Shown: positions 5,996 to 54,482 of the stretch, in pieces
Layout: the number at the start of each line of letters is the position of its first letter
How positions within the stretch are numbered: position 1 is the first letter of the stretch
NCBI GenBank assembly: GCA_019694465.1
Contig: JAIBBV010000006.1
Location: 18,843 to 82,842, forward strand
Length of the DNA stretch: 64,000 nucleotides
Source of the DNA: Oligoflexia bacterium
Lineage (GTDB): Bacteria > Bdellovibrionota_C > UBA2361 > JAFLCA01
Direction of reading: 5' to 3'
Notes under the pieces: generated by a model
The model's input: the letters and a program-made list of their open reading frames with translations, nothing else
What the model was told of the DNA's origin: nothing
Database searches by the model: none
Translations under genes and position numbers: made by a program

Positions 5996-6226
5996 CGGCT
6001 GCGAGTTGCTTGTTACTTTCTAAGAGTCGCATGTTCGGGCGCGGCCTGGGTGCGCAGCCGATGGGTATGACAAGAGTGGTCTAGAAAGGCCCTTTACATG
6101 GAAAAATCTTAACTATTACCTATGTTTGTTTGAGTTTACAGCTATGTTATACTGGCAACTCAAATTTCTCGGCAGTTCTTTCATTACAGGTTAAATAGGG
6201 TTGATGGGGGTTAGGTATCCTAATGG

Positions 6227-34796: not shown

Positions 34797-34864
34797 CGAG
34801 AGTTTAATGTAGTTTTTTTCAACACCTGCCTCCCCTTCTCGATTACTAATTAGGAAGGGGTCGC

Positions 34865-35653
34865 ATGTACGCAGAAACCGTGAGCACAGAAGCACACAAG
34901 AGTCGCCGAGACGCGCTAATCGAAGAGTACCGTAACTATGTTAGTGCGGTGGTTGGGCATTTGATCTCGAGCATGGGGCTGCCACGAAGTTGCTCAGACG
35001 AATTTATTGCAGCAGGCTATTTGGGTCTAGTAGAGGCAGCTGAGCGCTTTGACTTTTCATCCGGGTATCCATTTAAGAACTTTGCTTTCTTGCGCATTCG
35101 CGGCGCAATTATAGATAGCATCCGCGAGTGCTCTGAATTAACCGGCAAAGCCTACCGCTATGCACGAGCGCTCAAGGCGGCCCAGGAAATGCGTGAAGAT
35201 GACGAAGCTTTAGCCACACTTTCTGCCAGTGGTTTCAATGTAAACAGTCAAGTTACCCTCAATGCTGTGATGGGTTACCTAGGCCAGAGTGTGGTAGCGA
35301 ATCGTCTGAATGTGGTGAGTTTCCACGGCCTCTTAAATGCTGAACCAGGTGTTGAAGCTAGCCCGGAGGCCAATTTCCTGCGCCGTGAGGATATTGAGAA
35401 AATGCGAATTTTGGTGCGCGAGTTGCCGAAGCGTGAGCGCACTGTCGTTGAGGAGTTCTACTTCAAGGGGCGCCCTTTCATAGAAATTGGCCAGAAGATG
35501 GGGGGCTACTCAAAGTCTTGGGTTTCGCGGGTGCATTCCAGCGCACTTAAGGCCCTTTTAGAGGCTTATAGTAAGATTCAGGAACTACAAGAGAAGCCCT
35601 GCCCTAAAGTATCCAATTCAAACGGGCGTACTAAGAAAAAGTCTCGCGCTTAA
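34865..35653 (+). CDS. sigma-70 family alternative sigma factor, group 3 (FliA/WhiG sigma-28-like)
   Basis: Region 2 (…DEFIAAGYLGLVEAAERFD…FKNFAFLRIRGAIIDSIRE…) and region 4.2 (…IEIGQKMGGYSKSWVSRVHSSALKAL…). About 260 aa with no region 1.1. Confidence 0.7.
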   Translation: MYAETVSTEAHKSRRDALIEEYRNYVSAVVGHLISSMGLPRSCSDEFIAAGYLGLVEAAERFDFSSGYPFKNFAFLRIRGAIIDSIRECSELTGKAYRYARALKAAQEMREDDEALATLSASGFNVNSQVTLNAVMGYLGQSVVANRLNVVSFHGLLNAEPGVEASPEANFLRREDIEKMRILVRELPKRERTVVEEFYFKGRPFIEIGQKMGGYSKSWVSRVHSSALKALLEAYSKIQELQEKPCPKVSNSNGRTKKKSRA

Positions 35654-35817
35654 GGCAACATCGTAGCCGCTACTCGTAAATAATTTGCAGACCGCAGATC
35701 CTAAGCTGAGCCTAGGGGCAGGCAGGAGAATTGTCGATTACTAGATATGTTACAATGTGCTAAACACCCATCATAACTAAGGAGGGAAGTTTATGTGTCG
35801 CTATTAAGGCATGTTGT

Positions 35818-36201
35818 ATGGCTCACAAGATACTTAGTTACTTGCTGCTAGTTCTCCTTGCATCTCTAGCGCAAGTACAGCCAACCTACGCACAGGCAAA
35901 AACATCTGTTTTGACTCTGCCCATGCATGTGGAAGACTCAAATATACCAGTCCTAATTGGACTCCCCGGGACTGCTACCATGGCAGCCAGTGCCGGCAGA
36001 TATAGTAGCGTACTGCTTAGACATCAAGATATTGCGATTTGTCCGCCTTGTGAATGTACGTTAGCGATAGATGATTCGATTGATTTATACGTACGGATTT
36101 GCATCACCGCGCGTTGCCCGAGCTCAAATTTTCAAGATGATTGGGCGAGATTTTGTAGCGATTACATATCGCGGAATACAGCCTGGCAGCGAATCAATTA
36201 G
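35818..36201 (+). CDS. small secreted Cys-rich hypothetical protein
   Basis: Signal peptide MAHKILSYLLLVLLASLAQVQPTYAQA; 8 Cys in the mature part. Fits the gap between the sigma factor gene and convergent cysNC. Confidence 0.35.
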   Translation: MAHKILSYLLLVLLASLAQVQPTYAQAKTSVLTLPMHVEDSNIPVLIGLPGTATMAASAGRYSSVLLRHQDIAICPPCECTLAIDDSIDLYVRICITARCPSSNFQDDWARFCSDYISRNTAWQRIN

Positions 36202-36277
36202 TCGCGCCAAACAGATCGAGTCCAGCTGGAGGCGCTGAATAGCACTCGACCCAATGCGCCAAGCGCAAGTTCCACCA

Positions 36278-38182
36278 TCAACTAATCGCAATAATTCTGG
36301 CGACACATTCGGTAATCGTTGAATTTGCTGTGTCGAGTTTAAGCGCTGGATTAAGCGGTGGTTCATACGGGGAACCGATGCCTGTGAATTCAGGGATTTC
36401 CCCTTTCCGCGCCTTTTTGTAGAGGCCATGCGGGTCGCGCGCCTCACATACTTGCAGTGGTACATCCAAGTAAATCTCGACGAAACGTTCGCTGCCAATT
36501 ATGCTGCGAGCAGCAGCACGGTCTCTCCTAAATGGTGATACCAAGCTACAAATCACGCTCATGCCAGCTTCGTTAAAAAGTTTGGCCACTTCAGCCGTTC
36601 GACGCACATTCTCCCCGCGGTCCTCAATCGAGAACCCCAAATCCCTGTTAAGCCCGCTTCGAAGATAATCACCATCCAAGTGGAATATTGGAATTTTTTT
36701 ATCAAATAACGCACGTTCCAGGGCTCTGGCTATGCTCGATTTCCCTGAACCCGATAAGCCTGTAAGCCAGTACGTCTTAGCTCGAACGCCGGAGAGTTCC
36801 TCACGCTCTGCTTGCTCCACCAGTTTTGTATCGATATGTAGGTTTCTAGCTTGCTCGGCCGACTGGCGACGTAGCAATTGATTGGCCCAATAATCATTTC
36901 CGAGAGAATCGATGATCATTCCTGCCCCAACTGTATTATAGCTGATGGGATCTATTAGGATGAAGCTGCCCATGGCGCGGTTTCTCTCATACGGATCTAT
37001 CCACATAGGTTTGGTAGATTTGATAGTCCATCGAGCGATTTCATTCAATTGCATCCCGCCTCCGGGGAGACACTTGAGAGAAGAGCAATCAATCTTATAT
37101 TTGCAATTCTGAAGTATTACTTTGCTGTCGAAGGAGGCATGTTTAAGCAATAGAGTCAGGCCAGCATCGACATGATCCGCGCTCATCCAAATGATCATGG
37201 CGTCAAGCTCGCTGCGGGTCTCTGGAATATTATTGGAATCCACGAGAATTGATCCCCTTCCGACATCTAGATGGCGGTCGAGTACAACAGTCACGGATTT
37301 GCCAGCGCAGGCTTGCTCATATTGCTGCATTGTGCCGTCGATTCCAAGTTGCACTAATTGATGAATGCGCGCCTTGGTCTGACTGGGGAGAACAGTTACC
37401 TCGCAACCAACCCGCAATACACCTGAACAAACCTTGCCACCATAGCCCCTGAATGTTGCGCTTGGGTTTATTGTGCACTGGATGGGCACACGTAAGTCCA
37501 GCTGATTTAGATCGCTCTCGACTGGCGCAGTCTCTAAAATTTCGAGTACTGTTGACCCCTGATACCAGGGCATTTTTCTGCTGTTAACAGCGACATTGTC
37601 TCCGTGCAAGGCAGATATGGGGATGAAGGATAGCATGCCAAGGTTCAAATGATTCGCAAACGCAAGAAAATCCTTATTAATCTGATCGAATACTTCCTGC
37701 CGATAATCCACGAGATCCATTTTATTGACGGCCACAATTACTCGAGGAACACGCATTAGAGCTGAGATGAACGCATGGCGCTTCGTTTGCGGGAGGACGC
37801 CCTTGCTCGCGTCGATAAGTATGATAGTGAGCTCAGCGTTTGACGCTGCCGTCGCCATGTTACGGGTGTACTGCTCATGGCCAGGACTATCCACTAAAAT
37901 GAAACGCCGCTTGAGGGTAGAGAAGTAACGATAGGCAACGTCAATAGTAATGCCCTGCTCTTGTTCAGCTTTAAGCCCATCGGTAACTAATGCGAAGTCC
38001 AAAAGCGACGAGGTATTTCGTTTAGAACGTGCTTGCAGAGAGCTAAGCTGGTCGTCGAATAGGGCTCCCGTGTCGTAAAGTAACCTTCCTAGCAGGGTAG
38101 ATTTTCCATCATCAACAGATCCAGCTGTTGAAAAGCATAATAACTCTTGTCGTAGGGGGCTGGCTGAATCCGAGAGTAGCAT
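36278..38182 (-). CDS. cysNC: bifunctional sulfate adenylyltransferase subunit 1 (CysN GTPase) / adenylylsulfate kinase (CysC)
   Basis: N-terminal GTPase motifs (GSVDDGKST, DSPGH, NKMD). C-terminal APS kinase P-loop (GLSGSGKSS) and …FVEIYLDVPLQVCEARDPHGLYKKARKGEIPEFTGI…. Confidence 0.9.
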   Translation of the reverse strand: MLLSDSASPLRQELLCFSTAGSVDDGKSTLLGRLLYDTGALFDDQLSSLQARSKRNTSSLLDFALVTDGLKAEQEQGITIDVAYRYFSTLKRRFILVDSPGHEQYTRNMATAASNAELTIILIDASKGVLPQTKRHAFISALMRVPRVIVAVNKMDLVDYRQEVFDQINKDFLAFANHLNLGMLSFIPISALHGDNVAVNSRKMPWYQGSTVLEILETAPVESDLNQLDLRVPIQCTINPSATFRGYGGKVCSGVLRVGCEVTVLPSQTKARIHQLVQLGIDGTMQQYEQACAGKSVTVVLDRHLDVGRGSILVDSNNIPETRSELDAMIIWMSADHVDAGLTLLLKHASFDSKVILQNCKYKIDCSSLKCLPGGGMQLNEIARWTIKSTKPMWIDPYERNRAMGSFILIDPISYNTVGAGMIIDSLGNDYWANQLLRRQSAEQARNLHIDTKLVEQAEREELSGVRAKTYWLTGLSGSGKSSIARALERALFDKKIPIFHLDGDYLRSGLNRDLGFSIEDRGENVRRTAEVAKLFNEAGMSVICSLVSPFRRDRAAARSIIGSERFVEIYLDVPLQVCEARDPHGLYKKARKGEIPEFTGIGSPYEPPLNPALKLDTANSTITECVARIIAIS

Positions 38183-39075
38183 TAAAAATACCCCTCCCGC
38201 TTTTTTAGCTCCATCGACGCATCTTGGTCATAATCAATCACGCGAGTTTTTCTCTCTGACACACGCGTGTCCTGTAATTCGGCAATAATTTTTGGCACTG
38301 TGTCGGCCTCTGATACTACCGCTCCGGTGCATGGCATGCATCCCAAGGTACGGAAGCGACAACGAAGAGCTACGGGGGACTCATTCGATTTGAGCGGTGC
38401 AAAAGATGTAATTGGGATTAGCATGTTTCCGCGCTGTAACACCTGCCTGATCCTTGAGAAATATAATGAAGCGACGGGAATTCGCTCACGGAGAATATAT
38501 TCCCAAATATCAATTTCGGTCCAATTTGAGAGAGGAAAGGCGCGAATAGACTCGCCCAGCCGCACCTTTCCATTGAGCAGGCTCCAAAGCTCAGGTCGTT
38601 GATTTCTTGGTTCCCACTGTCCGAACTGGTCACGAAATGAAAATACACGCTCTTTAGCTCTAGAGCGTTCTTCTTCGCGCCTTGCACCTCCGATCGCAGC
38701 GTCAACCTTATGCAGGCGAAGTGCCTCAAGTAGCGCTTGGGTTTTAAGTAGGCGACAGCAATGTTCAGTGCCTAACTCGAAAGGGTTGGCTCCATCCGCG
38801 ATGGCGCGTTCATTTCGATAAACTATCAACTCTGCTCCCGCGGTCCTACAAGTTTCGTCACGGAACTCATACATCTCGGGGAACTTGAAGCCTGTGTCGA
38901 TGTGTAACAAGGGAAATGGAATTTTTCCCGGAGCGAAAGCTTTCTGGGCCAAGCGCAGTAGCACAGAAGAATCCTTGCCGACGGAATACAGCATTATAGG
39001 TCGAGCGAACTGAGCGACAATCTCACGAAAAATATATATGCTTTCGGCCTCCAGCCTATCGAGATGACTTTCCAT
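38182..39075 (-). CDS. cysD: sulfate adenylyltransferase subunit 2 (CysD)
   Basis: …IMLYSVGKDSSVLLRLAQKAF…PFPLLHIDTGFKFPEMYEFRDE… PAPS-reductase-like fold. Its stop overlaps the cysNC start. Confidence 0.9.
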   Translation of the reverse strand: MESHLDRLEAESIYIFREIVAQFARPIMLYSVGKDSSVLLRLAQKAFAPGKIPFPLLHIDTGFKFPEMYEFRDETCRTAGAELIVYRNERAIADGANPFELGTEHCCRLLKTQALLEALRLHKVDAAIGGARREEERSRAKERVFSFRDQFGQWEPRNQRPELWSLLNGKVRLGESIRAFPLSNWTEIDIWEYILRERIPVASLYFSRIRQVLQRGNMLIPITSFAPLKSNESPVALRCRFRTLGCMPCTGAVVSEADTVPKIIAELQDTRVSERKTRVIDYDQDASMELKKREGYF

Positions 39076-39154
39076 GCCAGTTCTATAGCTCAGAGGTTCT
39101 ATATAAAACAGGGTTCATTTAAAAGTTCCTTAAAGCGCTAGAGTTTCCCAGAAA

Positions 39155-40339
39155 TTAACTTGCTAGTTGTACTTGACGCTCCCAGCGACAGGAGTAGTCA
39201 GCAGCAACAAAGCCGATAAAGGTGTTGTGTTGGTGCTCTAAGAATAATTGGAGTGGTATCTCAAGCGTGTATCCAAAAAACGATTCACTCGCATTAGGCA
39301 GGAAGTTCGGGTATGCCTTCCTTACATCTACGCGTTCCATGGTGCAGATATTATGAGCGAGTACCCGATCATTGCTACGGAGATATACAAAAGCCGGTGC
39401 CAATCCACTTGCTGATTCAAAGCACCAACCTCCAATACTAATATTACCTGGAGAGTAAAGCACAGAATCAATCGCAAATATGACGGAAGGCTGCGAGCCG
39501 GAATGGAGCGGCTGTATTTGTGGCAGGCCTTGATGAGTGCTGGGGGGGACTGGGGCATCTAAGCTGCCATCAGAATCCTGTTGCTTTGATAAGAAATGCT
39601 CCAATATGAATTCAATCAACTCGTAGTCAGGCGCATTTGCAGCCCGTACGTCATTTAAATCTTGTTCGCTAATTTCAAAGTCTCGATTTGCTCCCGAATT
39701 TACCACCTTGTCAGCACTGGGCGGGTTAAAATGTACACCTAAAAGCGGTGACAGTCGGCGCATACTCTCGGCTAAGTGCTCCGTAATCCCTACGAACGCA
39801 AAGTGATTCAAGATTGTCTTTCGAGCAAGCTTAATTTCCCTTGAACCAATCTGCTTTGGCTGTTCCTCAAGAAAAGCGCGAGTTAGTGCGTTTGAGTTCT
39901 CTGGAAATTCGGGGGATAAACAAAAGTCTCGAAAGTTCAATGGAGAGTTTGAATGACGCCAAAAATTTCGCCCATCAAACCTTAGCGTTGAATGGAAATA
40001 GTCAGATACAAGACGACGCAGGGGATCCCGCACAAATGAAATAAGCTTAAAACCATCAAACTGACAGCAGTCTCGTAAGCCCAGATGGCCAGAAATAAAA
40101 CGTATTGACTGGCGCGAAGTTGGACTAAGCGCGTTCCAGGCTCTGAGACTGCAGTTCTCGGCTCCGTAAAACTGAGCAAATTGCCCGGGTGTAAGGTGCT
40201 TATGGATTGCACTAAGAAACCACTTGCCGGCTGTTTTCGGGATATGCATGAAGCAAAATTTAGAATTCATGTTCGTGTGGTTACCTTTCAGCAACATGCT
40301 TGGTTGATTCACAGAGATACTGGGATCCACCAACATCAA
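39155..40339 (-). CDS. PAPS-dependent sulfotransferase (Sulfotransfer_2-like) with a ~150-aa C-terminal extension
   Basis: 5-prime-PSB motif …MHIPKTAGKWF… and 3-prime-PB-like …RDPLRRLVSDYFH… In an operon upstream of cysD/cysNC on the same strand. Confidence 0.65.
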   Translation of the reverse strand: MMLVDPSISVNQPSMLLKGNHTNMNSKFCFMHIPKTAGKWFLSAIHKHLTPGQFAQFYGAENCSLRAWNALSPTSRQSIRFISGHLGLRDCCQFDGFKLISFVRDPLRRLVSDYFHSTLRFDGRNFWRHSNSPLNFRDFCLSPEFPENSNALTRAFLEEQPKQIGSREIKLARKTILNHFAFVGITEHLAESMRRLSPLLGVHFNPPSADKVVNSGANRDFEISEQDLNDVRAANAPDYELIEFILEHFLSKQQDSDGSLDAPVPPSTHQGLPQIQPLHSGSQPSVIFAIDSVLYSPGNISIGGWCFESASGLAPAFVYLRSNDRVLAHNICTMERVDVRKAYPNFLPNASESFFGYTLEIPLQLFLEHQHNTFIGFVAADYSCRWERQVQLAS

Positions 40340-40869
40340 CGGTCCGACCAGAGTGATCAGGGGCTACAGGCGTAAGCAGGCAACAAATAGTCACAAGGGC
40401 GACCTGGCTGTAAAAATAGCTTGCCTGATATGCAGTCGATTTCATGTTCATCTTCTCTGGATTGAAACAATCATTGAGAGAAGGTCGTAAGGCCCTTAAC
40501 CCGGAGGATCGGGGGATCTATTGAATTTTTATCAACCAACATCAATTTCTTCCGAGTGATTGAGGGGCGCGCACCCCGAGGCCCCAGTAGTTATTAGCAG
40601 GCCCATTATCAACACAACACAGTGGTTGGTCAATCTTTTAGGCAATAAATGATGATGAAAATTGCAAGCGCGGCTAATGGTTCAAAAATTGTAAAACCTA
40701 TTCAATGCGCTTAAGCCACTGGAAGATAGTAAAGAACGCATAACTTGCTGGTGTTTCAGCGCCTGTTTCGAGTCTTCCTTGAAAGGCAATTGGAGACGGC
40801 TAGGAGAAGTCTGAACAATCTAAAGACATTTTTTTCAACACTTGCCATTGGCTACCGATAAGCTCATGT

Positions 40870-41664
40870 GTGCCTTTAACAAAGGGCTTAAGCATGAAAG
40901 CTCGCGCAAAATTTGCATGTGTCGTAACTCGCCTGTCCGTCCTACTTGGCCTACTTTTCCTATGTAGTTGTCGCGAGACAATAGTTCACAATCTTTCAGA
41001 GCGGGACGCCAATCGCCTACTAACGCGCCTGCATGATGTGAGTATAGAGGCCACTAAAGAGAAGCAGCCCGATGGAAATTGGAGTATTGCGACTACTGAG
41101 GACGAGGCACTGCGCGCGATTAAGTTTCTAGATGATGCGCGCTTTTTTAGGCGTGAGGAGCTGCCTCAAGACAACGAAGAGTCGGTATTGGCTAGTCCCG
41201 AAGAACGGCGCGCTCGCACAAACCGCTTATTAGCGCGTGAGTTGGAAGCCAGTATCCGTAGCATCGATGGTATTCTGGAAGCGCACGTACACCTAAACAT
41301 ACCGCCCTTAGATCCAATTTTTGGCACAGTAGCGAGCCTTCAGCATGGCTCAGGCAGCGTGGTGGCAACTGTTGCACCGGGGAATAAGGTCATGGTTGGT
41401 GATTTGCAGGCACTTGTGTCTGGAGCGACTGGAATAGCTCCTAAGGATGTGAGTGTCCTGCTCGCGGATGGAGACATCGCTAGGGATGGCTTATTGCAGC
41501 CAAAGTCGCATGAAGTTGGGAATGAATCTACGTCATGGTGGGCAGCGGTCCTGTTGCGCAGGGAAGTAGTGTTGCTAATTGGGGTCGGACTCCTGCTGCT
41601 AGGTTTTGCTTTGCTGCATGCTTTACAAACATCACGAGGAGTGAGTTCGGAGGTGGCCCAGTGA
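40870..41664 (+). CDS. sctJ: type III secretion inner-membrane ring lipoprotein SctJ (YscJ/PrgK/EscJ family)
   Basis: Lipobox LLFLCSC, YscJ-family core (…LLTRLHDVSIEATKEKQPDGNWSIATTEDEALRAIKFL…ILEAHVHLNIPP…) and C-terminal TM helix. The likely start is ATG 40894. Confidence 0.8.
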   Translation: MPLTKGLSMKARAKFACVVTRLSVLLGLLFLCSCRETIVHNLSERDANRLLTRLHDVSIEATKEKQPDGNWSIATTEDEALRAIKFLDDARFFRREELPQDNEESVLASPEERRARTNRLLARELEASIRSIDGILEAHVHLNIPPLDPIFGTVASLQHGSGSVVATVAPGNKVMVGDLQALVSGATGIAPKDVSVLLADGDIARDGLLQPKSHEVGNESTSWWAAVLLRREVVLLIGVGLLLLGFALLHALQTSRGVSSEVAQ

Positions 41665-41864
41665 GTGAGCCAGAGCCAAATGAAACACGCGCGCAATGGG
41701 AAGAAAAGTTTTTGGCCGCTTTGTTCCTGCATGGCTTGCGACTGCGAGTCAATTGCTTGGCAGGGATAGATAAGGAACGGGTCAGCGCTTTAGCTCGTGA
41801 TATCGAAGATATGCCAGAAGCATGGGCCATGGATTGGGCGCTTAGCCGATTCGACTACAGGTGA
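41661..41864 (+). CDS. small T3SS-associated ORF, translationally coupled to sctJ (GTGA overlap)
   Basis: In frame with listed ORF 41535-41864. GTG at 41661 overlaps the sctJ stop. 67 aa with no recognisable motif. Confidence 0.3.
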   Translation: MSEPEPNETRAQWEEKFLAALFLHGLRLRVNCLAGIDKERVSALARDIEDMPEAWAMDWALSRFDYR

Positions 41865-41868
41865 GCAA

Positions 41869-42795
41869 ATGGGATTGAGGGCTAAATTAATTCAAGACAG
41901 CTGCGTCAATGATGCCGGACTATTAGAGGAATTTATTAGCGAGCTAGCTGGCTATCTGCTTGGATGCTCCGCCAAAGCATATATATCAGATTGTGTATGT
42001 CGCACGATGCAAAGCAACGTATGGGTCTGCCTACGGCAGCAGGGTGGGGCCGCCTTCATGCTAGGTATCCCAGCCCAAACTGAGATAGACCGCGAAGTAT
42101 TTCAATTTTCATGTTTAGCCCGTGTAATGGCGTTCCTCTCAAATACTGGCCGGAATGAAGTAATTCTCCCAAATATTGAGCTAGATTCTGGCTGCAGGAC
42201 ATGGCAGGTGGACATACTTGCCAGCCAGAATTCGACCCTTCTCTCACAATGGACATTGTGCAGACACTCTGCGGCTAAATGTCTTGATAGCGAGAAACAT
42301 GGGCGCGTAGCTTACCCACAGCGTCTCAGGGCAGAAATCGGAATCAAGTTAGGTGCCACTACATCGCTTCAGCGCCGCTATGAACTTAGCAGGTTGAGTT
42401 GGTTTTTGAGGACCAGCGAAGTGGAATGGTCGCTTAAATGTGATGGCACTAATCAATTTTATGTAAGTGGAGAAAACAGCATGAGCAGTGATCGCCTGAA
42501 GCTAGAGATAATGATTGGAAGCGTGGAGATAGGGCTAGAGGAGTTTTCGGCTCTTCGCCCCGGTTGCCGACTTGCACTTGAGATAGGTGCTCCGATTGAA
42601 GGCACCCTATGTGTAAACGGGGTGGCGTGGGCAGCTGTACAGCTGGAGTTTGGTCCTAATGCCAATGAAATTAGGATATTAGAAATGTTGGATTTGACAC
42701 TGCGTAAGGCTGAACTGCCGGAAATGGCAACACTCGCTGAGATATTCCGATTAGATGATCAGACATCCTCAAACGAGAAAGACGCTAGAAGTTGA
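41869..42795 (+). CDS. sctQ: type III secretion cytoplasmic-ring protein SctQ (YscQ/HrcQ; SpoA/FliN-like C-terminal domain)
   Basis: C-terminal …LKLEIMIGSVEIGLEEFSALRPGCRLALEIGAPIEGTLCVNGVAWAAVQLEFGPNANEIRILEM is a SpoA domain. ATG 41869 has the RBS aggtga and directly follows the upstream stop; the listed ORF starts at 41797. Confidence 0.6.
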   Translation: MGLRAKLIQDSCVNDAGLLEEFISELAGYLLGCSAKAYISDCVCRTMQSNVWVCLRQQGGAAFMLGIPAQTEIDREVFQFSCLARVMAFLSNTGRNEVILPNIELDSGCRTWQVDILASQNSTLLSQWTLCRHSAAKCLDSEKHGRVAYPQRLRAEIGIKLGATTSLQRRYELSRLSWFLRTSEVEWSLKCDGTNQFYVSGENSMSSDRLKLEIMIGSVEIGLEEFSALRPGCRLALEIGAPIEGTLCVNGVAWAAVQLEFGPNANEIRILEMLDLTLRKAELPEMATLAEIFRLDDQTSSNEKDARS

Positions 42796-42907
42796 CTCAA
42801 AGATAGCTTCTAGTCGCGCCAAGGATGGCGCGGCAAACGCCGAAGGCGTTTGTAGCGAGGCGAGGCATGGGCACTTTGGGACCCATGCCGAGCTCGAAGC
42901 GAATTAA

Positions 42908-42927
42908 AAATGGGCAGGAGCCCATTT
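42908..42927 (+). terminator. 8-bp stem / 4-nt loop hairpin (aaatgggc agga gcccattt) followed by TT, between sctQ and the needle/rod-like gene; attenuator or terminator-like
   Basis: Read directly. A second 7-bp inverted repeat gcatggg…cccatgc lies at 42865-42888. Confidence 0.35.
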
Positions 42928-42958
42928 TTGAAATGACTTGTACTAAAGGAGAGACAAT

Positions 42959-43258
42959 ATGGAATCAGTAAATGGCAATGATGCAGCGGCAACAATTTCT
43001 AGCTTAGGATACTCACGATTTCTTCCCGAGCCGACTAGCCGGCTATCTTCAGTTTTTAGCAGCATACTACAGGGGATAACTGGAGCAGCCAAAAGTGCAT
43101 CCGGACTCTTCTCCGGTATTGATTCCGGTTACGTCGAGTTGCTCAATAAGCAAATCGAATCGCAACAGCAGATGCAGCTAGTCTCAATGGAATCAAACGT
43201 AGAGAAATCGAAGCACGAAACTCAGATGGCAGCTATTCGTAACGTACGGGTGGGATAA
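42959..43258 (+). CDS. small T3SS needle / inner-rod family protein (SctF/SctI-like)
   Basis: 99 aa; Ser/Ala-rich N-terminus. The C-terminal …LVSMESNVEKSKHETQMAAIRNVRVG fits the needle/rod C-terminal pattern (h..SN..K……IRN[IFV]). Sits between sctQ and sctV with a strong RBS (aaaggagag). Confidence 0.4.
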   Translation: MESVNGNDAAATISSLGYSRFLPEPTSRLSSVFSSILQGITGAAKSASGLFSGIDSGYVELLNKQIESQQQMQLVSMESNVEKSKHETQMAAIRNVRVG

Positions 43259-43289
43259 TTCGGCAACTGAATTCAGCCAGAGGCGGCAT

Positions 43290-45155
43290 ATGAAACAGTT
43301 GATGGTACCTGGAGTGCTGGTCGCAATTGTGGCGAGTATGCTACTCCCGTTGCCGCCTCTAGCGCTTGATTTTCTGATAGTTGCCAACCTAGTCCTGGCA
43401 TTCGTTCTGTTGGCATCAACTGTTTATATCGCCGAGCCAATGAAACTGTCCTCTTTGCCGACAATATTACTGCTCGCCACCTTGTATAGGCTGGCACTTA
43501 ATATTTCTACATCTCGGCAGATTCTTTCACATGGCGAAGCTGGGCAGGTGATTGAGGCGTTTGGAGCAATAGTTATTCAGGGAAATATCTTAGTCGGTCT
43601 GGTTGTATTCATGATCGTATCGATTGTGCAGTTTGTTGTAATCGCAAAGGGCGCTGAACGAGTCGCGGAGGTTACAGCTAGATTTACTCTGGATGCTTTG
43701 CCCGGAAAGCAGATGTCGATCGATGCAGATGTGCGCGCTGGGCTACTAGATGGGGCTGGTGCACAGGCCAAACGCCAAGAGCTGCAAATTGAGTCACGTT
43801 TTTATGGCGCCCTAGATGGGGCAATGAAGTTTATTAAGGGAGATGCTCTGGCTGGGTTGGTGATAGTGGTGCTGAACCTTTGTGGTGGGTTTGGTGTGGG
43901 CGTTGCCATGCAGGGCATGAATCTTAAGCAAGCTGTGACACATTATTCGGTCCTGAGTGTTGGTGATGCGCTTGTCGCGCAGCTTCCAGCTCTGCTTAAT
44001 GCCTTGGCGGCTGGAGTGATAGTAACCCGCGTTTCTCGCGGCGATGGCACTTCACTAGCGAATGAGCTTCCCATGCAGCTTGGGCAGTTGCGTGTTGTTA
44101 AGTTCCTCACAGCTGGATTGGCTGCTGTATGTGCATTTTTGCCCGGCATGCCGACACTTCCATTTCTGATGTTCGGCTTGCTCATGTTGATTATGGCTTG
44201 TGTGCACCAGGCGGCGCAGGAGGAAGTGCCTCTCTGCGCTGATCGGTTTAATCCTAAGGCAGTGCCACTCATAGGATTGGAGTTCGGCACTGAAATTTCG
44301 AAGACTTTGCAGGGGCATGGGAAGGATCTTGTGCGCGCTATCGATGGGGCACGCGAGAGATTGTACGCTTCTACCGGGGTGCTAGTGCCGACCCCCGATG
44401 TGATTAGAGTTGACAAGCTAGGCAGCGCATTTTGCCTGTGCCTGCGTGGCATAGAGGTGGCACGCGAGTCGGCGCAAGGAACAGTGGCAGAGGTAGTATC
44501 GGCTGTTGGCAATTTAGTTCAGGCCGCCCTGATCAAGCATCAGTTAGAGCTCGTTGATGACAGGATGACACGCGCTCTTTTGGATATCCTGGAGCGCGAG
44601 GCGCCCGAGTTGGTTTCGTCAGTTGTGCCCGGCATAGTGAGCATCACGCAGATTAGCATGATTCTCAAGGAGCTGCTGCGCGAGGGAGTGCGAATTAGAA
44701 ACTTTGACCTGATTCTTCAGGCCCTTGCTGAACATGGACCAAAAGCACGCAATGAACGCGCGCTTTTAGAGGAAGTGAGAGTATCGTTGAGCCGCTCCCT
44801 ATGCGCGGACCTTGTAGACTCACAAGGACGCATAGCTTGCTATGAAGTGGCACCATTATTTGATGTTTGGCTAGTAGCAGCAGAGAAAGAAGGCAAAGCA
44901 ATTGATCCACTCTTAATTGCTAAGCTGGCAAACGAAATAAGTGCTGCTGCTGTAAATTGCGGTCCAGTGGTTGTAGTAGTGTCGAAAGGAGGACGGGCCT
45001 ACCTGCGGGATTGCCTTAAGCTACGACAAATATCGGCGACGCTCTTAGCATATGAGGAGATACCTATTGACCTCAGCATAGTCTCACAAGGCAGACTTGG
45101 GTCGTGCATAGCAGAGGAGGAGCATGAAACGATTGTTCAAGCCCTTGCTGCTTAG
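43290..45155 (+). CDS. sctV: type III secretion export-gate protein SctV (FHIPEP family; YscV/InvA/FlhA homologue)
   Basis: N-terminal TM domain is near-identical in pattern to YscV (…LLPLPPLALDFLIVANL…FGAIVIQGNILVGLVVFMIVSIVQFVVIAKGAERVAEVTARFTLDALPGKQMSIDADVRAGL…GAMKFIKGDALAGLVIV…). Context with SctJ (not FliF) argues for a non-flagellar system. Confidence 0.9.
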   Translation: MKQLMVPGVLVAIVASMLLPLPPLALDFLIVANLVLAFVLLASTVYIAEPMKLSSLPTILLLATLYRLALNISTSRQILSHGEAGQVIEAFGAIVIQGNILVGLVVFMIVSIVQFVVIAKGAERVAEVTARFTLDALPGKQMSIDADVRAGLLDGAGAQAKRQELQIESRFYGALDGAMKFIKGDALAGLVIVVLNLCGGFGVGVAMQGMNLKQAVTHYSVLSVGDALVAQLPALLNALAAGVIVTRVSRGDGTSLANELPMQLGQLRVVKFLTAGLAAVCAFLPGMPTLPFLMFGLLMLIMACVHQAAQEEVPLCADRFNPKAVPLIGLEFGTEISKTLQGHGKDLVRAIDGARERLYASTGVLVPTPDVIRVDKLGSAFCLCLRGIEVARESAQGTVAEVVSAVGNLVQAALIKHQLELVDDRMTRALLDILEREAPELVSSVVPGIVSITQISMILKELLREGVRIRNFDLILQALAEHGPKARNERALLEEVRVSLSRSLCADLVDSQGRIACYEVAPLFDVWLVAAEKEGKAIDPLLIAKLANEISAAAVNCGPVVVVVSKGGRAYLRDCLKLRQISATLLAYEEIPIDLSIVSQGRLGSCIAEEEHETIVQALAA

Positions 45156-45723
45156 GGCAGCGCTAGTGTCACTGATCATAAGCGTAACGGCATGCTCACC
45201 AACCATAATTCTCCCTAGTTTGGAGGAACGACGAAGGGCCATCTCGTTGGTTGATGAAGGAACCCTGCAGCTACGCCAAGGAGAGCTTTCTAGTGCGGAG
45301 GCTTCTTTTAGGGTTGCCTATGACTTGGCTTACCTCCCTCAGGCCTTGGATGGCTTGGGTTGTGTGGCACTACGGCGTCAAGACTTCAAAAATGCTGAAA
45401 AGTTTTTTCGAGGTGCATTGGAACTTGATCCAACATATATACAGGCACTTGCTAACCTTGCTTTTCTGCTCGAAGAGCAGGGTAACAGCAAAAAAGCGGA
45501 GCAGTTGTATCGAAAGAGTGTGGAGTTGGACCCGGCGAATGCTGGGGTAAGAAATAACTTCGCAGTTAATTTGGCTCACGGGCCGCATCAACACTTGGCA
45601 CTTGAGCAGTTCCAAGCTGCCCTTGTCTTGAGCGGTAATCCAGCAATTCGGGACAATCGTGCGCTAGCGCTCATGGAGACAGAGCAGGACCTAGCGCTAA
45701 AACCTAAAATTGATCATAATTAA
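45124..45723 (+). CDS. TPR-repeat lipoprotein, T3SS-linked
   Basis: Signal plus lipobox (…LIISVTAC). About 4 TPR units (…AEKFFRGALELDPTYIQALANLAFLLEEQGNSKKAEQLYRKSVELDPANA…). The RBS gaggagg and ATG overlap the sctV 3-prime end. Confidence 0.6.
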   Translation: MKRLFKPLLLRAALVSLIISVTACSPTIILPSLEERRRAISLVDEGTLQLRQGELSSAEASFRVAYDLAYLPQALDGLGCVALRRQDFKNAEKFFRGALELDPTYIQALANLAFLLEEQGNSKKAEQLYRKSVELDPANAGVRNNFAVNLAHGPHQHLALEQFQAALVLSGNPAIRDNRALALMETEQDLALKPKIDHN

Positions 45724-45736: not shown

Positions 45737-46051
45737 ATGGGTGCTAGAACAAAACATAAACTTAAGACTGTAAAGTCACCAGGTGTCAAACGAGAGGTAC
45801 GGCGAAAGTCACAACCTCAGCCACAGCGAATGGGCGCTAGTATCTGGTCTGCTCAAGTGGCTGAGCTCGTAGGGCGCGACTTCGCCAGTACTGAAGCAGC
45901 GATAGCTGCCGTTTGTAGTGGTGTACTCGATCGCTTAGGTGTACAAGGGCAGGAGCGCGCAGAGCAAGAAAAGTTTATGCTTGATCTGATTGAGACTGAT
46001 CCAGAGTTGCGAGGAGTCCTTTTACAGAGTCTAAGAGTTAGGAAGCGCTGA
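45737..46051 (+). CDS. small basic hypothetical protein (104 aa)
   Basis: ATG 45737 with RBS gggag. Lys/Arg-rich N-terminal half. No motif. Confidence 0.35.
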   Translation: MGARTKHKLKTVKSPGVKREVRRKSQPQPQRMGASIWSAQVAELVGRDFASTEAAIAAVCSGVLDRLGVQGQERAEQEKFMLDLIETDPELRGVLLQSLRVRKR

Positions 46052-46879
46052 TGCATCAGCGCTTCCATCAGCTTGATCTTGAGCCTGATCTTCCGTAGCT
46101 GATGTTTCTTTATTTGAGGAGTTTGCGGCTTCCGTTGGCCTTGGCACTTTAACTCCCTTACGATCCCCTAGGCGTTTCCGCAAACGCCCGAGTCTTGTGG
46201 CTGGCCCATTTTGGCGTTCCAGGCAGAAATCTAGAATCGCTTGAGCTAACTTTTCTTCGCCCCCTTGTGCGAAAGTCTTTGCCAGCTCTACGGCGCGTTT
46301 GAAGCCCATAACTTTTTTGCCCAGCTCTCGCTGAGCTGTCTCGAACTGCCGGGCCTGTTTCATAGTTTGTGCCAGGCGATCCAGATTGCTCATCGCTAGT
46401 GAAACAAGAGCCTCATTGCGATTCTTTGCATACAAGATGGCTTCCGACAGTGGTTCGCCCTTAGTAGCCATGGCAATACTACTATCGAGAGTATCTCCGG
46501 CAAATGGTTTTACTATAAATCCGCGCGCGCCAATAACCAACAAGTTGAACACGTCATCGACGCTGGGCTCAGATGATGAAGGCAGCGCTATAATCTTCTC
46601 ATCGCATGCGAGTACTGCCGTGAGGAATTCAGACGCTGGCATGGTGGATTTTTTAGCTTCAAAAATGACATGTGTAATCGGTCGCTCGGCAAGCTTTTGC
46701 AAAGCCATAGCGTGGTTGGGAGCGTCCCAAACCGAGGGATATCCAAGTGAAGCCAGAGTTTGCTTGAAGGTGTTGCGAGTGGTGGCGTCCGATTCAACAA
46801 CCAGGATCTGCGCTCTGTCCTTGTCGAGACTCGACATGACAGGTGCGCCGCCATTGGCTAAAAAGTCCTGGTAGTTCAT
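46031..46879 (-). CDS. atypical receiver-domain protein (pseudo-receiver: phospho-acceptor Asp replaced by Glu) with coiled-coil C-terminal extension
   Basis: CheY-like fold markers (…ILVVESDATTRN…ITHVIFEAKKSTMP…IVKPF…). The D57-equivalent position aligns to E. C-terminal 130 aa is charged and helical. Confidence 0.5.
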   Translation of the reverse strand: MNYQDFLANGGAPVMSSLDKDRAQILVVESDATTRNTFKQTLASLGYPSVWDAPNHAMALQKLAERPITHVIFEAKKSTMPASEFLTAVLACDEKIIALPSSSEPSVDDVFNLLVIGARGFIVKPFAGDTLDSSIAMATKGEPLSEAILYAKNRNEALVSLAMSNLDRLAQTMKQARQFETAQRELGKKVMGFKRAVELAKTFAQGGEEKLAQAILDFCLERQNGPATRLGRLRKRLGDRKGVKVPRPTEAANSSNKETSATEDQAQDQADGSADASALPNS

Positions 46880-47117: not shown

Positions 47118-47885
47118 TTGTGTCTTGCCCACAGGATAGCTATGAGTACAGCCGCAAATGAAAAACGCACTATTCTTGTCGCTGATGATGACGCAGACAC
47201 ACGCGCCATTGTCACAAGCGCGATTCAGATGCTTGGGCATAACAGTGTCGAAGCCGCTGATGGTAGGCAGGCTTTATCTCTGTCACGTGAACTGGGGATA
47301 GATTTGGCTGTGCTAGATATCATGATGCCGGAAGTAAATGGTAACGAAGTTTGCCAAAGTATTAAGCAAAGTGAGTTCGGACCATACATTCCAGTTTTGA
47401 TGTTGACTGCCCGCGACAATGTCAAAGACAAAGTGAGTTCATTGGATGGTGGTGCAGATGACTATCTAACTAAACCATTTCATTACCAAGAGTTGCAGGC
47501 GCGCATACGCGCGTTGCTCAGAGTTCGTGAACTGAATGAGCGGCTACGTTCACAGAACGATCAACTAAAGGCGATGCAAGCAACGATAGTTTCACAAGAG
47601 CGGCAACTGCTAGTTAATCAATTAGCCGGTACAGCTGCGCATCAGTTAGGGCAACCATTGTCAGCGATTCTATTAAATTGTCACGTGATCGAAACTTTGC
47701 CAGCCGGGGATCCTCGCGCTCAGCGCTCCCTGGCTGCTATCAAGCAAGATGCAAAACGAATGGCTGAAATGATCGAACGTCTAAGATCCGCCGATGCTTC
47801 TAAGACTCAATCGTATCACGGTAAAACTGCGATTTTGGAGCTCGACGACACAGAAAAAACAGATACAAATAAAACTGCACAATAA
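47118..47885 (+). CDS. response-regulator receiver fused to a HisKA-like dimerization/phosphoacceptor domain, no HATPase domain
   Basis: Canonical REC (…ILVADDDADTR…LAVLDIMMPEVNGNEV…VLMLTAR…DDYLTKPF…), then a coiled coil and an H-box-like …LAGTAAHQLGQPLSAIL… The protein ends after ~80 further residues with no ATP-binding G-boxes. Confidence 0.65.
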   Translation: MCLAHRIAMSTAANEKRTILVADDDADTRAIVTSAIQMLGHNSVEAADGRQALSLSRELGIDLAVLDIMMPEVNGNEVCQSIKQSEFGPYIPVLMLTARDNVKDKVSSLDGGADDYLTKPFHYQELQARIRALLRVRELNERLRSQNDQLKAMQATIVSQERQLLVNQLAGTAAHQLGQPLSAILLNCHVIETLPAGDPRAQRSLAAIKQDAKRMAEMIERLRSADASKTQSYHGKTAILELDDTEKTDTNKTAQ

Positions 47886-48019: not shown

Positions 48020-48667
48020 TTAGATCACCTCAGCGGCGCGTTGCGCAAGAAGTTTGGCACGAATAATTTGTCGCTTGCCTGTGAAGTCGTCCCAATATGT
48101 TTGAAGACGTTTGCGAAGCATCAGGCGAGAACGATGTAACCTAGACTTTACCGCCGGAATCGAGAGATCTAAAATCTCACTTACTTCTTGATTGGAGAGA
48201 CCATCAACATCGCGCAGCACAAACACTGCTCTGTATTGATCAGGAAGCTTGTTCAATGCGGCTTCAATAATGTCTCGCATTTCTTTATTGATCGAGAGTA
48301 AGTCTGAACGATTTCCGAAAGATACTTCGCGATCTAAACACTGTTGCTTAACAGCAGGCGCCAAATCTTCAATAGCAACTGTATTGTTTTGTTTGCGCTT
48401 ACGTAACTTCATGAATGCAGCGTTCACGATGATGCGATATAGCCAGCTGGAGAAGGCTGAGTTGCCTTTGAAGCCATCGAGCTTCTGATACAGGGTGGTG
48501 AAAACATCCTGCAGTACTTCTTCGGCATCTTCCTGGTTTCGGGTGAAGCGCATGGCAAGGTTGTAGATCTTTGACTCATAGCGCTCGAGCAACTCTTCAA
48601 AGGCTTCCATTGAGCCTTTGCGGAATTTGGCAATGAGGGTCGCATCAGTAATTTTTTTCTCTTTCAT
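48020..48667 (-). CDS. ECF (sigma-24/RpoE-like) sigma factor
   Basis: Region 2 (…AEEVLQDVFTTLYQKLDGFKGNSAFSSWLYRIIVNAAFMKLRKRKQ…) and region 4 (…RAVFVLRDVDGLSNQEVSEILDLSIPAVKSRLHRSR…). Confidence 0.85.
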   Translation of the reverse strand: MKEKKITDATLIAKFRKGSMEAFEELLERYESKIYNLAMRFTRNQEDAEEVLQDVFTTLYQKLDGFKGNSAFSSWLYRIIVNAAFMKLRKRKQNNTVAIEDLAPAVKQQCLDREVSFGNRSDLLSINKEMRDIIEAALNKLPDQYRAVFVLRDVDGLSNQEVSEILDLSIPAVKSRLHRSRLMLRKRLQTYWDDFTGKRQIIRAKLLAQRAAEVI

Positions 48668-50951: not shown

Positions 50952-51626
50952 CTAAGACGCTGGTTTTTCCGACATAATATCTCTAGCGATACAGCTCGCC
51001 AGGTCTCGGACCAGGCCGGCAGTATCCATGATAGTAGGGTCTTCCTTGGCCAGGTAAATGGAGCTCAGCTCAGAATTAACACCGCGCCTATATGAACTTG
51101 CAGTGGTTACGCCAGACCAGAGGGTGATGCCAGACTCAGCCTCGATAAGTTTTGTTTCCGCGCTCAGTTTATCTAAGGAAACTATTGGCTGAACTTTTCC
51201 AACCAGTATCAAATCATATCCGGCATCGCGACCGGCAGCGATGGCACCAAAATTACCCGTGGCAAACTCATCCTTCTTGGAGGGCCAGTCTTGGCGATTA
51301 AGAACCTCGACTATGGGGATCGTGTCGAGATCTACTATTTCACTGCGTACCTGCCAGGCTAGCTCGTTGCCCAGACCTGGCATTTCTGTCCCACGCGAGG
51401 CAAGGTTTGCCGGGGTTGAAAATGGAATAATCCCCAGTCGTACTGGAGCACTTGAGTCATAACGGCTACTTAGGTAGTCCGCAACAACGTTGCGCAAGTA
51501 TGCACGGGAATTGCATCGATCAAGAACGTACTGTTGTGTCAGCGAGCAGCTGACCAGACCAAGGATGGTGGAAAGTGTCAGAAGTTTGACACCAACGACG
51601 GTAAAACGGCGCAGGCTTAATAGCAT
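50952..51626 (-). CDS. lipoprotein, CsgG/LpoB/FlgO-like fold (hypothetical)
   Basis: Lipobox LVSCS, then …VRLGIIPFSTPANLASRGTEMPGLGNELAWQVRSEIV…, the pattern shared by CsgG/LpoB/FlgO-type lipoproteins. Confidence 0.4.
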   Translation of the reverse strand: MLLSLRRFTVVGVKLLTLSTILGLVSCSLTQQYVLDRCNSRAYLRNVVADYLSSRYDSSAPVRLGIIPFSTPANLASRGTEMPGLGNELAWQVRSEIVDLDTIPIVEVLNRQDWPSKKDEFATGNFGAIAAGRDAGYDLILVGKVQPIVSLDKLSAETKLIEAESGITLWSGVTTASSYRRGVNSELSSIYLAKEDPTIMDTAGLVRDLASCIARDIMSEKPAS

Positions 51627-53708: not shown

Positions 53709-53709
53709 A

Positions 53710-54465: not shown

Positions 54466-54482
54466 GTTGAGGCGTTAGCTTT

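Follow-up and report, generated by a model that had tools for sequence, protein, structure and literature searches.

A 64,000-nucleotide stretch of contig JAIBBV010000006.1 from an Oligoflexia bacterium, called the window throughout, carries a cluster of genes related to type III secretion systems (T3SSs). Here, we report that the region between positions 40870 and 45723 of the window holds one instance of a conserved cassette of genes for part of a T3SS-type export machine. The cassette belongs to neither the injectisome nor the flagellar system nor, by its gene content, to the type known from Myxococcales, and no description of it was found in the open-access papers searched. We regard it as a genuine variant within the type III secretion family, one that is conserved and has apparently not been described, and consider it highly probable that this module is of the T3SS type, is functional, and has a lineage of its own.

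A conserved gene cassette

An initial annotation of the sequence had reported six plus-strand open reading frames (ORFs) in 40870-45723, and all six are present at those positions. It had read them as part of a canonical system in an unusual local order. This reading has to be replaced, as the genes form a fixed cassette with a sigma factor of its own and are not shuffled pieces of an injectisome. In related loci, the gene order is a FliA-like sigma factor gene (SIG), a gene for an SctJ-type ring protein (J), a gene for a protein of about 70 aa (s67 in the window), a gene for an SctQ-like protein (Q-like), a gene for a 99-aa protein (s99), the gene for the FHIPEP gate subunit (V), a gene for a tetratricopeptide repeat (TPR) lipoprotein, and a gene for a protein of about 105 aa (s113 in the window). 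The last of these is followed on its 3' side by genes for receiver proteins or response regulators and then by an extracytoplasmic function (ECF) sigma factor gene. When all ORFs of 40 related loci were clustered by BLAST, s99 was recovered in 40 loci, V in 39, J and the TPR lipoprotein in 37 each, and the sigma factor in 35; the misses are due to contig ends, the three loci without a TPR gene ending before its position. The Pfam context of six independent contigs showed the same order. The cassette unit is thus wider than 40870-45723: its upstream part is the FliA-like sigma factor gene at 34865-35653, and downstream it takes in the gene for the protein of about 104 aa at 45737-46051 and the regulators up to 48667 (Table 1).

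The order and the intact ORFs were maintained in the 40 loci although V itself is only 45-55% identical between them, and neither frameshifts nor stop codons were seen across the cassette orthologues. Between the window and its closest relative, locus L005, synonymous sites are saturated, so that no ratio of nonsynonymous to synonymous substitutions was computable, yet all seven ORFs are intact at 31-85% amino acid identity. A scan for the s99 motif with one genome per species gave 35 loci, all in metagenome-assembled genomes (MAGs) except that of Edaphobacter. The hosts of the cassette are labeled Bdellovibrionota, Bdellovibrionales, Oligoflexia, "Deltaproteobacteria", "Dadabacteria", or plain "bacterium". 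So far, the cassette has been found almost only in uncultured Bdellovibrionota.

The gate subunit V lies outside the SctV and FlhA reference clades

V was initially annotated as SctV. That it is a genuine FHIPEP protein is beyond doubt (Pfam E-value 4.4e-160); its place within SctV, on the other hand, was not recovered. V scored 482.9 bits against the hrcV model (cut-off 692) and 470.6 bits against the FlhA model (cut-off 772). Among solved structures, SsaV and YscV matched with about 325 bits and FlhA with somewhat lower scores (255-292 bits). The best 120 of more than 6,000 FHIPEP matches to V were all 589-657 aa long, and the named ones among these 120 came from MAGs of Bdellovibrionota, Bdellovibrionales, Oligoflexia, "Deltaproteobacteria", and "Dadabacteria". 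We then placed V in a neighbor-joining tree of 35 family members, six SctV references (Yersinia, Shigella, a Desulfovibrio plasmid, Bradyrhizobium, Ralstonia, and Edaphobacter), and four FlhA references. The V family was monophyletic with a bootstrap value of 100/100, the values for the FlhA and SctV references were 99 and 83, respectively, and V fell outside both reference clades. The mean Kimura distances were 1.37 between the V family and SctV, 1.41 between the V family and FlhA, and 1.25 between SctV and FlhA. In this tree, the V family is a third FHIPEP clade beside FlhA and SctV, about equally far from both and farther from either than these two are from each other.

The transmembrane (TM) half of V holds a PGKQMSIDAD loop and a GD motif that are invariant in 61 family members. 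The C-terminal domain is 45-60 residues shorter than in SsaV or FlhA, and the AlphaFold2 (AF2) model of V (predicted local distance difference test score, pLDDT, 88.7) has only a beta-hairpin, residues 380-394, at the place of cytoplasmic subdomain 2. In the model, this subdomain is therefore reduced. A Foldseek search with V matched FlhA_C and SctV_C equally well (target-normalized template modeling (TM) scores of 0.65-0.73).

We also considered whether V is a genuine flagellar FlhA, as grouping with FlhA together with a nearby FliF gene would have suggested. V is outside the FlhA clade, no FliF gene is present nearby, J is not FliF, and no other flagellar assembly genes are linked to the cassette; the assignment was rejected.

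J, s67, and the Q-like protein

J is of the SctJ type rather than FliF, in agreement with the initial annotation. It matched Pfam YscJ_FliF (E-value 2.9e-11), scored 83.8 bits against the NCBIfam SctJ model (equivalog cut-off 162) compared with 24.7 bits against FliF, and was matched by tblastn to YscJ and the Desulfovibrio SctJ. A lipobox Cys and a single C-terminal TM segment are kept in its orthologues.

The next gene, s67, starts at the GTG within a GTGA that overlaps the J stop codon, and GGAGG is located 8 nt upstream. The translational coupling of the 67-aa ORF to sctJ that had been described is thus seen at the junction itself, with a ribosome-binding site. An ORF of 55-120 aa starting between -60 and +30 nt of the J stop was found in 23 related loci, two of these ORFs probably being spurious. 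Sequence conservation across the positional orthologues is weak (W/C-E...AA; P..W). Neither s67 nor s113 matched any family or profile, and neither had an hhalign match among about 60 small reference proteins from T3SSs and flagella. An objection that the small ORFs of the cluster are unconserved fails, because s67 is conserved in position, and s99 is conserved in both position and sequence.

The Q-like gene was called as a 332-aa ORF; its best start is ATG 41869, which gives 308 aa and matches the NCBI record. The SpoA domain that had been noticed between sctJ and sctV is present, weakly in the window (FliMN_C, E-value 0.033) and in 21 of 28 orthologues (best E-value 7.9e-9). Matches to SpaO_YscQ, the SctQ equivalog model, are also weak, with E-values of 0.006 in the window and 6.8e-5 in locus L006. 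The N-terminal 220 aa are unalignable to known families. A sequence search of the PDB returned nothing relevant for this protein, and a word-indexed homologue search returned only the protein itself.

s99 and the needle/rod superfamily

The best conserved small protein of the cassette is s99, which was found in 40 of 40 loci and is 85% identical between the window and its closest relative. Its C-terminal helix is almost invariant (Q..Q.QMQ.VSM.SN.EKS(K/R)HE(T/S).MA.IRN.R). Homologues numbered 88 in a word-indexed search and 373 cluster representatives in an exhaustive search; the 88 are all without Pfam domains, and where, in a few cases, a name is given, it is hypothetical protein. In the AF2 model, s99 is a single helix (residues 56-98, pLDDT about 90), and the N-terminal (F/Y)xPEPxS motif falls in a low-confidence region.

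Relatives of s99 came to light in two places. A sister subclade of eight loci (100/100) has an extra stand-alone FliN-like gene, matching FliMN_C with E-values of 1.8e-12 to 1.9e-5, and an extra gene for a protein of about 95 aa, here called c23. The latter lies between s99 and V, and its product ends in (V/I)I.N(I/M)R. By hhalign, s99 and its paralogue c23 matched with a probability of 95.5% over the C-terminal 41 columns, and c23 matched a five-member SctF profile with 74.9% (E-value 2.6e-5) over 47 columns ending at both C-termini. Twenty column-shuffled controls of the latter comparison gave at most 0.3%, and SctI against SctF as a positive control gave 90%. The second relative is in Edaphobacter aggregans, whose cluster continues after V with a 107-aa gene, a 136-aa s99-like gene, and a gene for a cytosolic TPR protein matching CdsG and SctY. 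The s99 profile matched the 136-aa protein, whose C-terminus is ...SNLEKSKHETFMAVIQNIT, with a probability of 96.5%, and the arrangement resembles sctE-sctF-sctG as in Yersinia and Aeromonas. Searches of the PDB with the s99 and c23 profiles gave nothing relevant.

Because of these links to c23 and Edaphobacter, s99 is best placed in the needle/rod superfamily, as one of its divergent members, an assignment by transitive homology that we hold with moderate confidence. The needle or rod pattern that the initial annotation had seen in the 99-aa protein thus stands indirectly, through c23 and the Edaphobacter protein; direct hhalign comparisons of s99 with SctF, SctI, and FliE showed no similarity. 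The latter result also led us to drop s99 as an SctI/FliE lookalike, an impression that its VSM motif had given.

Two further observations concern these loci. In the loci listed for the sister subclade (L023, L030, L031, L033, L035, L036, L037, L041, and L042), V is longer, 640-690 aa. The 136-aa gene of Edaphobacter, a cultured acidobacterium, is itself a candidate for an unrecognized needle subunit with co-chaperones.

The TPR lipoprotein

The ORF of the TPR protein starts 32 nt inside V, behind GAGGAGGAG, and a lipoprotein signal peptide is present in all seven aligned orthologues. The coupling of a TPR lipoprotein gene to sctV, noted initially, was thus borne out. A role as a secretin pilotin or assembly factor, proposed at the same time, was not, because no gene for a secretin, SctD, or an ATPase is present, either in the window or in the flanks of about 10 kb of the 40 loci. 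The protein matches many unrelated TPR families, and its best NCBIfam match, the pilotin PilW (TIGR02521), is at 67.9 bits with a cut-off of 154. A cytosolic chaperone of the SctY/SctG type was also considered and rejected in view of the signal peptide in all aligned orthologues. In three loci (L023, L035, and L036), a GT2-type glycosyltransferase gene lies directly 3' of the TPR lipoprotein gene.

Table 1. Positions of the cassette genes, promoter-like motifs, and syntenic regulators in the window
Feature	Position	Strand	Remarks
Promoter-like motif CAACAC-N2-GC-N9-YCGATWA, copy 1	34820..34845	+	Upstream of SIG
SIG, FliA/WhiG-like sigma factor	34865..35653	+	Normally the first cassette gene; Pfam Sigma70_r2, r4
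Promoter-like motif, copy 2	40836..40861	+	Upstream of J; also before J in the closest relative (L005)
J, SctJ-type inner-membrane ring lipoprotein	40894..41664	+	Longest ORF from GTG 40870; likelier start ATG 40894
s67, 67-aa acidic cytoplasmic protein	41661..41864	+	Coupled to J by GTGA
Q-like, SctQ-like SpoA protein	41869..42795	+	Divergent N-terminal part of about 220 aa and C-terminal SpoA domain (FliN-type)
Promoter-like motif, copy 3	42728..42753	+	Inside the Q-like gene at its 3' end; 206 nt before s99
s99, 99-aa small protein	42959..43258	+	N-terminal (F/Y)xPEPxS; conserved C-terminal helix ending in IRNxRxG
V, FHIPEP export-gate subunit, SctV/FlhA homologue, 621 aa	43290..45155	+	Separate lineage; cytoplasmic subdomain 2 reduced in the model
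TPR lipoprotein	45124..45723	+	Signal peptide; lipobox VTAC, Ser at +2
s113, protein of about 104 aa	45737..46051	+	Lys/Arg-rich N-terminus, conserved helical C-terminus
Receiver-domain protein	46031..46879	-	Response_reg, E-value 3.7e-7; Glu replaces the phospho-acceptor Asp (VIFEAKK)
Receiver and HisKA protein without ATPase domain	47118..47885	+	Response_reg, E-value 7.2e-27; HisKA, E-value 5.5e-9
ECF sigma factor, SigW/RpoE-like	48020..48667	-	Sigma70_r2, r4_2, ECF and NCBIfam matches; 17 loci

Sigma factor and promoter-like motif

The best NCBIfam match of SIG is FliA_WhiG, at 83.2 bits with a cut-off of 189.6, and SIG also matches the chlamydial sigma-28 model (E-value 1e-16). Its orthologue is located directly 5' of J in every other locus with upstream sequence. 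The window is unlike all of these in that a block of about 5.2 kb (35654-40835) lies between SIG and J. On the opposite strand, the block encodes a CysN/C-like sulfate adenylyltransferase/adenosine 5'-phosphosulfate kinase, a CysD-like subunit, and a sulfotransferase, and it also holds a 127-aa ORF with a signal peptide.

A promoter-like motif is present on both sides of this block, with a third copy further downstream (Table 1); its longer form in the window is TTTTTTTCAACACyTGCC-N9-yCGATwA. The exact motif had three matches in the window, all on the plus strand, compared with 0.02 expected, a figure that overstates the significance because the pattern was derived post hoc, after the sites had been seen. 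In about 15 loci, the orthologous sigma factor gene is preceded by a related motif, GGAAACTTT-N11-xxCGATAA, that agrees in spacing and in most bases with the sigma-28 consensus promoter TAAAGTTT-N11-GCCGATAA; FliA and WhiG recognize TAAA-N15-GCCGATAA. In a three-way alignment of the window copies before SIG and J with the sequence upstream of J in the closest relative, the motif block is invariant while the flanks differ, and the motif is thus conserved rather than the scar of a recent duplication. A position weight matrix scan for the GAAACTTT-type promoter (GAAACTTT-N11-xxCGATAA) missed the window sites because the window lineage uses a TCAACAC variant. The loose pattern xAAC-N16-CGAWx alone was not above chance (13 found, 9.8 expected), nor did a generic scan for sigma-70 promoters and terminators exceed the shuffled expectation.

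J and the genes downstream of it likely kept the same control after the insertion; the motif before J would be there because the 5.2-kb insertion separated J from SIG. From its position ahead of the 163-nt gap between the Q-like gene and s99, we infer that the third copy could serve as an internal promoter for s99-V. The motif may be read by SIG, with the neighboring ECF sigma factor as an alternative reader.

The missing channel

Export by a T3SS is impossible without SctR, SctS, SctT, and SctU. We scanned the window with Pfam, using all ORFs of at least 150 aa, and by tblastn with 56 references from Yersinia (Ysc), Shigella (Mxi-Spa), E. coli flagella (Fli), and the Desulfovibrio plasmid. 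No sctN, R, S, T, U, C, D, L, K, or O was found in the 64-kb window, which extends what the initial annotation had stated for sctN, sctR/S/T/U, sctC, and sctD. The window likewise holds no protein of FliF length and no FliG, FliE, FliH, FliI, FliJ, FliK, FliL, FliM, FliO, FliP, FliQ, or FliR. Within about 10 kb of any of the 40 loci, there is no gene for a secretin, SctD, an ATPase, a translocon, or a tip protein.

One locus, L013, which is in the same main clade as the window, carries channel genes. A divergent sctR-sctS-(sctT)-sctU operon (4341-6478, minus strand) lies one gene upstream of its SIG. The SctR-like protein scored 128.8 bits against yscR and 121.5 against fliP, and the SctS-like protein scored 55.7 and 52.2 bits. 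At the SctT position, there is a 209-aa protein with five predicted TM segments. The SctU/FlhB homologue has 232 aa, covers model positions 2-224 of 348, and is without the NPTH autocleaving C-terminal domain. A cytosolic SctY-like TPR gene and two further FliA-like sigma paralogues are in the neighborhood. Like V, these R, S, T, and U proteins are, as a set, about as close to the flagellar as to the injectisome models, and their sequences fit a cognate, co-evolving export core that would be unlinked in most genomes. A metagenome scan with the L013 SctR-like protein gave only one unrelated 2.4-kb fragment. A split apparatus is plausible because L013 carries divergent sctR, sctS, likely sctT, and a truncated sctU beside the cassette. 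The initial proposal that the apparatus is encoded in several loci therefore has one supporting case, whereas 39 of the 40 loci are without linked R, S, T, and U genes.

The same absence invites another explanation, namely that J, V, and the Q-like protein assemble on the FliPQR-FlhB core and the FliHIJ ATPase of the host flagellum as a non-rotating basal body that exports s99 and a few other proteins. The genes for R, S, T, U, and N are missing from the window and from 39 of 40 loci, both the sigma factor and the promoter belong to the sigma-28 type used by flagella, and the hosts appear to be flagellated. Flagellin genes lie near the cassette in L008 (12761-14635, minus strand) and L001 (17724-19490), and one of them encodes a 624-aa flagellin with an FG-GAP repeat insert; these hosts are thus probably flagellated, with a separate flagellar export apparatus. 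There are also precedents. Interactions with T3SS proteins were described for the orphan FlhA, FliF, and FliI of Chlamydia (PMC2830194), and FlhA_C-like densities were seen in a non-flagellar hat-shaped inner-membrane complex (PMC9380563). However, L013 has a separate, divergent R-S-(T)-U set, and its truncated U would be useless for flagellar substrate switching. Furthermore, V and J differ so strongly from FlhA and FliF that a fit to the flagellar core would require co-adaptation. We consider the use of a flagellar core rather unlikely.

Still less probable is the view of the initial annotation that the cassette is one piece of a canonical injectisome, with the other sct genes and a secretin elsewhere and the TPR lipoprotein as pilotin. 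J is indeed of the SctJ type, needle-related proteins are present, the TPR protein is a lipoprotein with a type IV pilus pilotin as its best NCBIfam match, and genome-scattered loci of non-flagellar T3SSs (NF-T3SSs) are known (PMC3459982). This view is opposed by the position of V outside the SctV reference clade and by the lack of secretin, SctD, ATPase, translocon, and tip genes within about 10 kb of the 40 loci. In addition, the sole linked SctU is without the switch domain needed for hierarchical secretion, and the PilW score, which is far below its cut-off, comes from a protein that matches many unrelated TPR families.

Downstream regulators

Downstream of the TPR gene, s113 has clustered orthologues in 22 loci and positional equivalents in others; like s67, it is conserved in position, the sequences of the two being weakly to moderately conserved. 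The receiver gene at 46031-46879 is syntenic in many loci, and the BLAST cluster that contains it and the gene at 47118-47885 has members in 29 loci. The former receiver is probably independent of phosphorylation, because Glu is found at the place of the phospho-acceptor Asp.

Together with the own sigma factor, the two small unassigned proteins, and the ECF sigma factor, these syntenic regulators (a pseudo-receiver and a receiver-HisKA protein) could point to an apparatus that does not secrete at all. J, V, and the Q-like protein would then be an inner-membrane signaling complex or scaffold, for example, a sigma factor checkpoint that sequesters or exports a small anti-sigma factor (s67 or s113) in the manner of FlgM and FliA; that channel genes are unlinked in most loci would also fit. 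On the other hand, s67 and s113 have no similarity to FlgM or to any reference protein, the conserved needle-family proteins and the gate motifs of V speak for real export, and export of an anti-sigma factor would itself need a channel. This explanation seems to us improbable. That the cassette is a decaying, functionless remnant of a flagellar or injectisome cluster, as the incomplete gene set and the family scores below all curated cut-offs might suggest, is hardly credible in view of the same order and intact ORFs in 40 loci at 45-55% V identity with saturated synonymous sites, the 85% identity of s99 between the window and its closest relative, and the promoter-like motif kept before both J and SIG after the insertion.

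Other genes of the window

A FlgO-domain lipoprotein (51657-52439, E-value 4.6e-31) is the only loosely related item in the window, and no other flagellar genes are nearby. It forms a pair, kept in the closest relative, with a gene for a 224-aa protein (50952-51626) that matches no family and has an N-terminus like that of a lipoprotein. Also kept there are three ORFs in a row (236, 251, and 263 aa; 52998-55274) without Pfam matches and without mutual similarity. An 841-aa protein (2090-4615) has a hydrazine-synthase alpha domain in its middle part (HZS_alpha, E-value 3.1e-10), the rest being unassigned. A 209-aa Cas4/PD-(D/E)XK nuclease-like protein is encoded at 57991-58620 on the minus strand; no cas genes were found among the scanned neighboring ORFs.

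Proposed mechanism and significance

Taking these results together, we lean, by a small degree, toward a conserved, reduced export apparatus of the T3SS kind with a lineage of its own. In this apparatus, J would form the inner-membrane ring around the gate, and V and the Q-like protein would receive substrates on the cytoplasmic side. SctR, SctS, SctT, and an SctU without the autocleaving switch domain would be encoded at another locus of this genome. Export would be driven by the proton-motive force, either without a dedicated ATPase or with one encoded elsewhere; flagellar export can run without FliHI. The missing switch domain of SctU and the reduced subdomain 2 of V suggest a very small substrate range, chiefly s99. 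As the main substrate, s99 could assemble on the gate into a short rod or needle, with the C-terminal helix mediating polymerization, and because there is no secretin, the structure would end in the periplasm or at the outer membrane. The TPR lipoprotein might anchor it through the TPR groove, for which the invariant PEP motif, located in the disordered N-terminal part of s99, is a possible ligand. By the rule known from E. coli, the Ser at +2 of the lipoprotein marks it for the outer membrane, although this rule may not apply to the phylum. Transcription would start from sigma-28-type promoters read by SIG. The periplasmic rod and the TPR anchor are offered tentatively, as details for which we see less than an even chance. 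The apparatus may be used for predation, envelope assembly, or signaling.

Several points weigh against this picture. All hosts of the cassette are MAGs. SctR, S, T, U, and the ATPase are absent from the window and from flanks of about 10 kb in 39 of 40 loci, and the adjacency in L013 is a single case that could be a coincidence. The tree of V is a neighbor-joining tree with ten references and was built without the Myxococcales systems, the chlamydial CdsV, and the chlamydial FlhA paralogue. s99 had no sequence match in the PDB, no fold match by Foldseek, and no Pfam match, in addition to the negative direct comparisons described above, and c23 had no match to a Pfam needle family. The Foldseek result for s99 is weakly informative, because the model is essentially one long helix with a predicted template modeling score (pTM) of 0.33. 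The rod and anchor steps were drawn from the anatomy of the proteins.

A bolder and more doubtful version can be formulated. The cassette, with unlinked SctR/S/T and a switch-less SctU, might be an autonomous third branch of type III secretion that works without ATPase, secretin, or switch. It would build a short needle-like rod of s99 (and, in one subclade, c23) across the periplasm, docked to the TPR lipoprotein at the outer membrane, under the control of its own sigma-28-like factor, and serve contact-dependent delivery or envelope remodeling in uncultured, probably predatory Bdellovibrionota. If this were true, the third branch could be a surviving intermediate between flagellum and injectisome, or an independent reduction.

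Type III secretion is treated as having two main branches, the flagellum and the injectisome, and where an evolutionary intermediate is cited, the one reduced form named is the secretin-less system of Myxococcales. With a third FHIPEP lineage that is both widespread and strongly conserved, there would be a further point of comparison when asking what a T3SS truly cannot do without and how the injectisome evolved. The cassette suggests a different minimal set: a ring, a gate subunit, a SpoA protein, needle-family proteins, an exported TPR lipoprotein, and a dedicated sigma-28-like factor, possibly with a switch-less SctU. It also defines several protein families that are now all annotated as hypothetical, s99 alone having 373 cluster representatives. 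In addition, it suggests that uncultured Bdellovibrionota, whose phylum is known for its predators, have an envelope machine that is as yet unstudied.

Comparison with known systems

The yardstick for a non-flagellar T3SS is a set of nine core proteins, SctC, J, N, Q, R, S, T, U, and V (Abby & Rocha 2012). The cassette resembles injectisomes (Ysc, Mxi-Spa, and Desulfovibrio) in its SctJ-type lipoprotein ring, its SpoA protein of the SctQ kind, its FHIPEP gate, and the needle-type C-terminal helix. A TPR gene beside sctV is also found in the Ysc and Desulfovibrio loci, but there it encodes the cytosolic chaperone SctY, whereas that of the cassette encodes an exported lipoprotein. The cassette further differs from injectisomes in that V is outside the SctV clade, that SctC, D, N, L, K, O, P, W, and the translocon are missing from the window, that the only linked SctU is without the autocleaving domain, and that regulation is sigma-28-like. 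The cluster of E. aggregans DSM 19364 (L043, 200-11200) is complete, with a Q protein containing an FHA domain and with R, S, T, U, and V. Its SctV is conventional, being 42% identical to YscV, and groups outside the clade of the cassette V; its s99-like gene is followed by a cytosolic TPR chaperone gene where the cassette has the lipoprotein gene. As in the pilotins PilF, PilW, and Tgl, the TPR lipoprotein combines a lipoprotein signal with three to four TPR units. Unlike theirs, its gene is strictly syntenic with the FHIPEP gene, and no locus has a secretin gene.

With flagellar export, the cassette shares the FHIPEP subunit, the FliN-type SpoA domain, the FliA-like sigma factor, and a promoter similar to TAAAGTTT-N11-GCCGATAA. 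In contrast to the flagellum, J is a lipoprotein of 250-270 aa, where FliF has about 550 aa; V is about 70 aa shorter than FlhA and outside its clade; and there are no FliG, FliE, rod, hook, or motor genes. In Chlamydia, a short FlhA gene adjoins that of sigma-28, and FliF is short. The cassette is similar to this orphan set in having a short FHIPEP paralogue, a sigma-28-type factor, and a short FliF/SctJ-like ring protein without flagellar context, and V scored 233 bits against the chlamydial FlhA model. Chlamydiae also have a complete injectisome, and we know of no s99, TPR lipoprotein, or Q-like partner in the orphan set. The function of the orphan FlhA, FliF, and FliI of Chlamydia is unknown (PMC2830194). 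The FlhA-dependent hat-shaped inner-membrane complex illustrates that FHIPEP rings occur in non-flagellar assemblies (PMC9380563).

Among described systems, the NF-T3SS of Myxococcales comes nearest to the cassette. It is secretin-less, has neither tip nor translocon, branches near the root of flagellum and injectisome, is conserved over large evolutionary distances, and was judged to be functional and not a relic (PMC3459982). Its short and long loci hold R, S, T, U, V, the ATPase, SctJ, and SctI in one cluster, without SctF. The cassette has only J, the Q-like protein, V, one or more needle-family proteins, the TPR lipoprotein, and the FliA-like sigma factor, its channel genes being unlinked in 39 of 40 loci and no ATPase having been found. 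The absence of a secretin is common to both, and the cassette is set apart from the Myxococcales loci by its gene content. In Myxococcus xanthus, the needleless T3SS* is recruited to prey contact sites and is needed for prey lysis (PMC12075869). Like T3SS*, the cassette would encode a reduced T3SS, and the hosts of T3SS* are predatory former Deltaproteobacteria.

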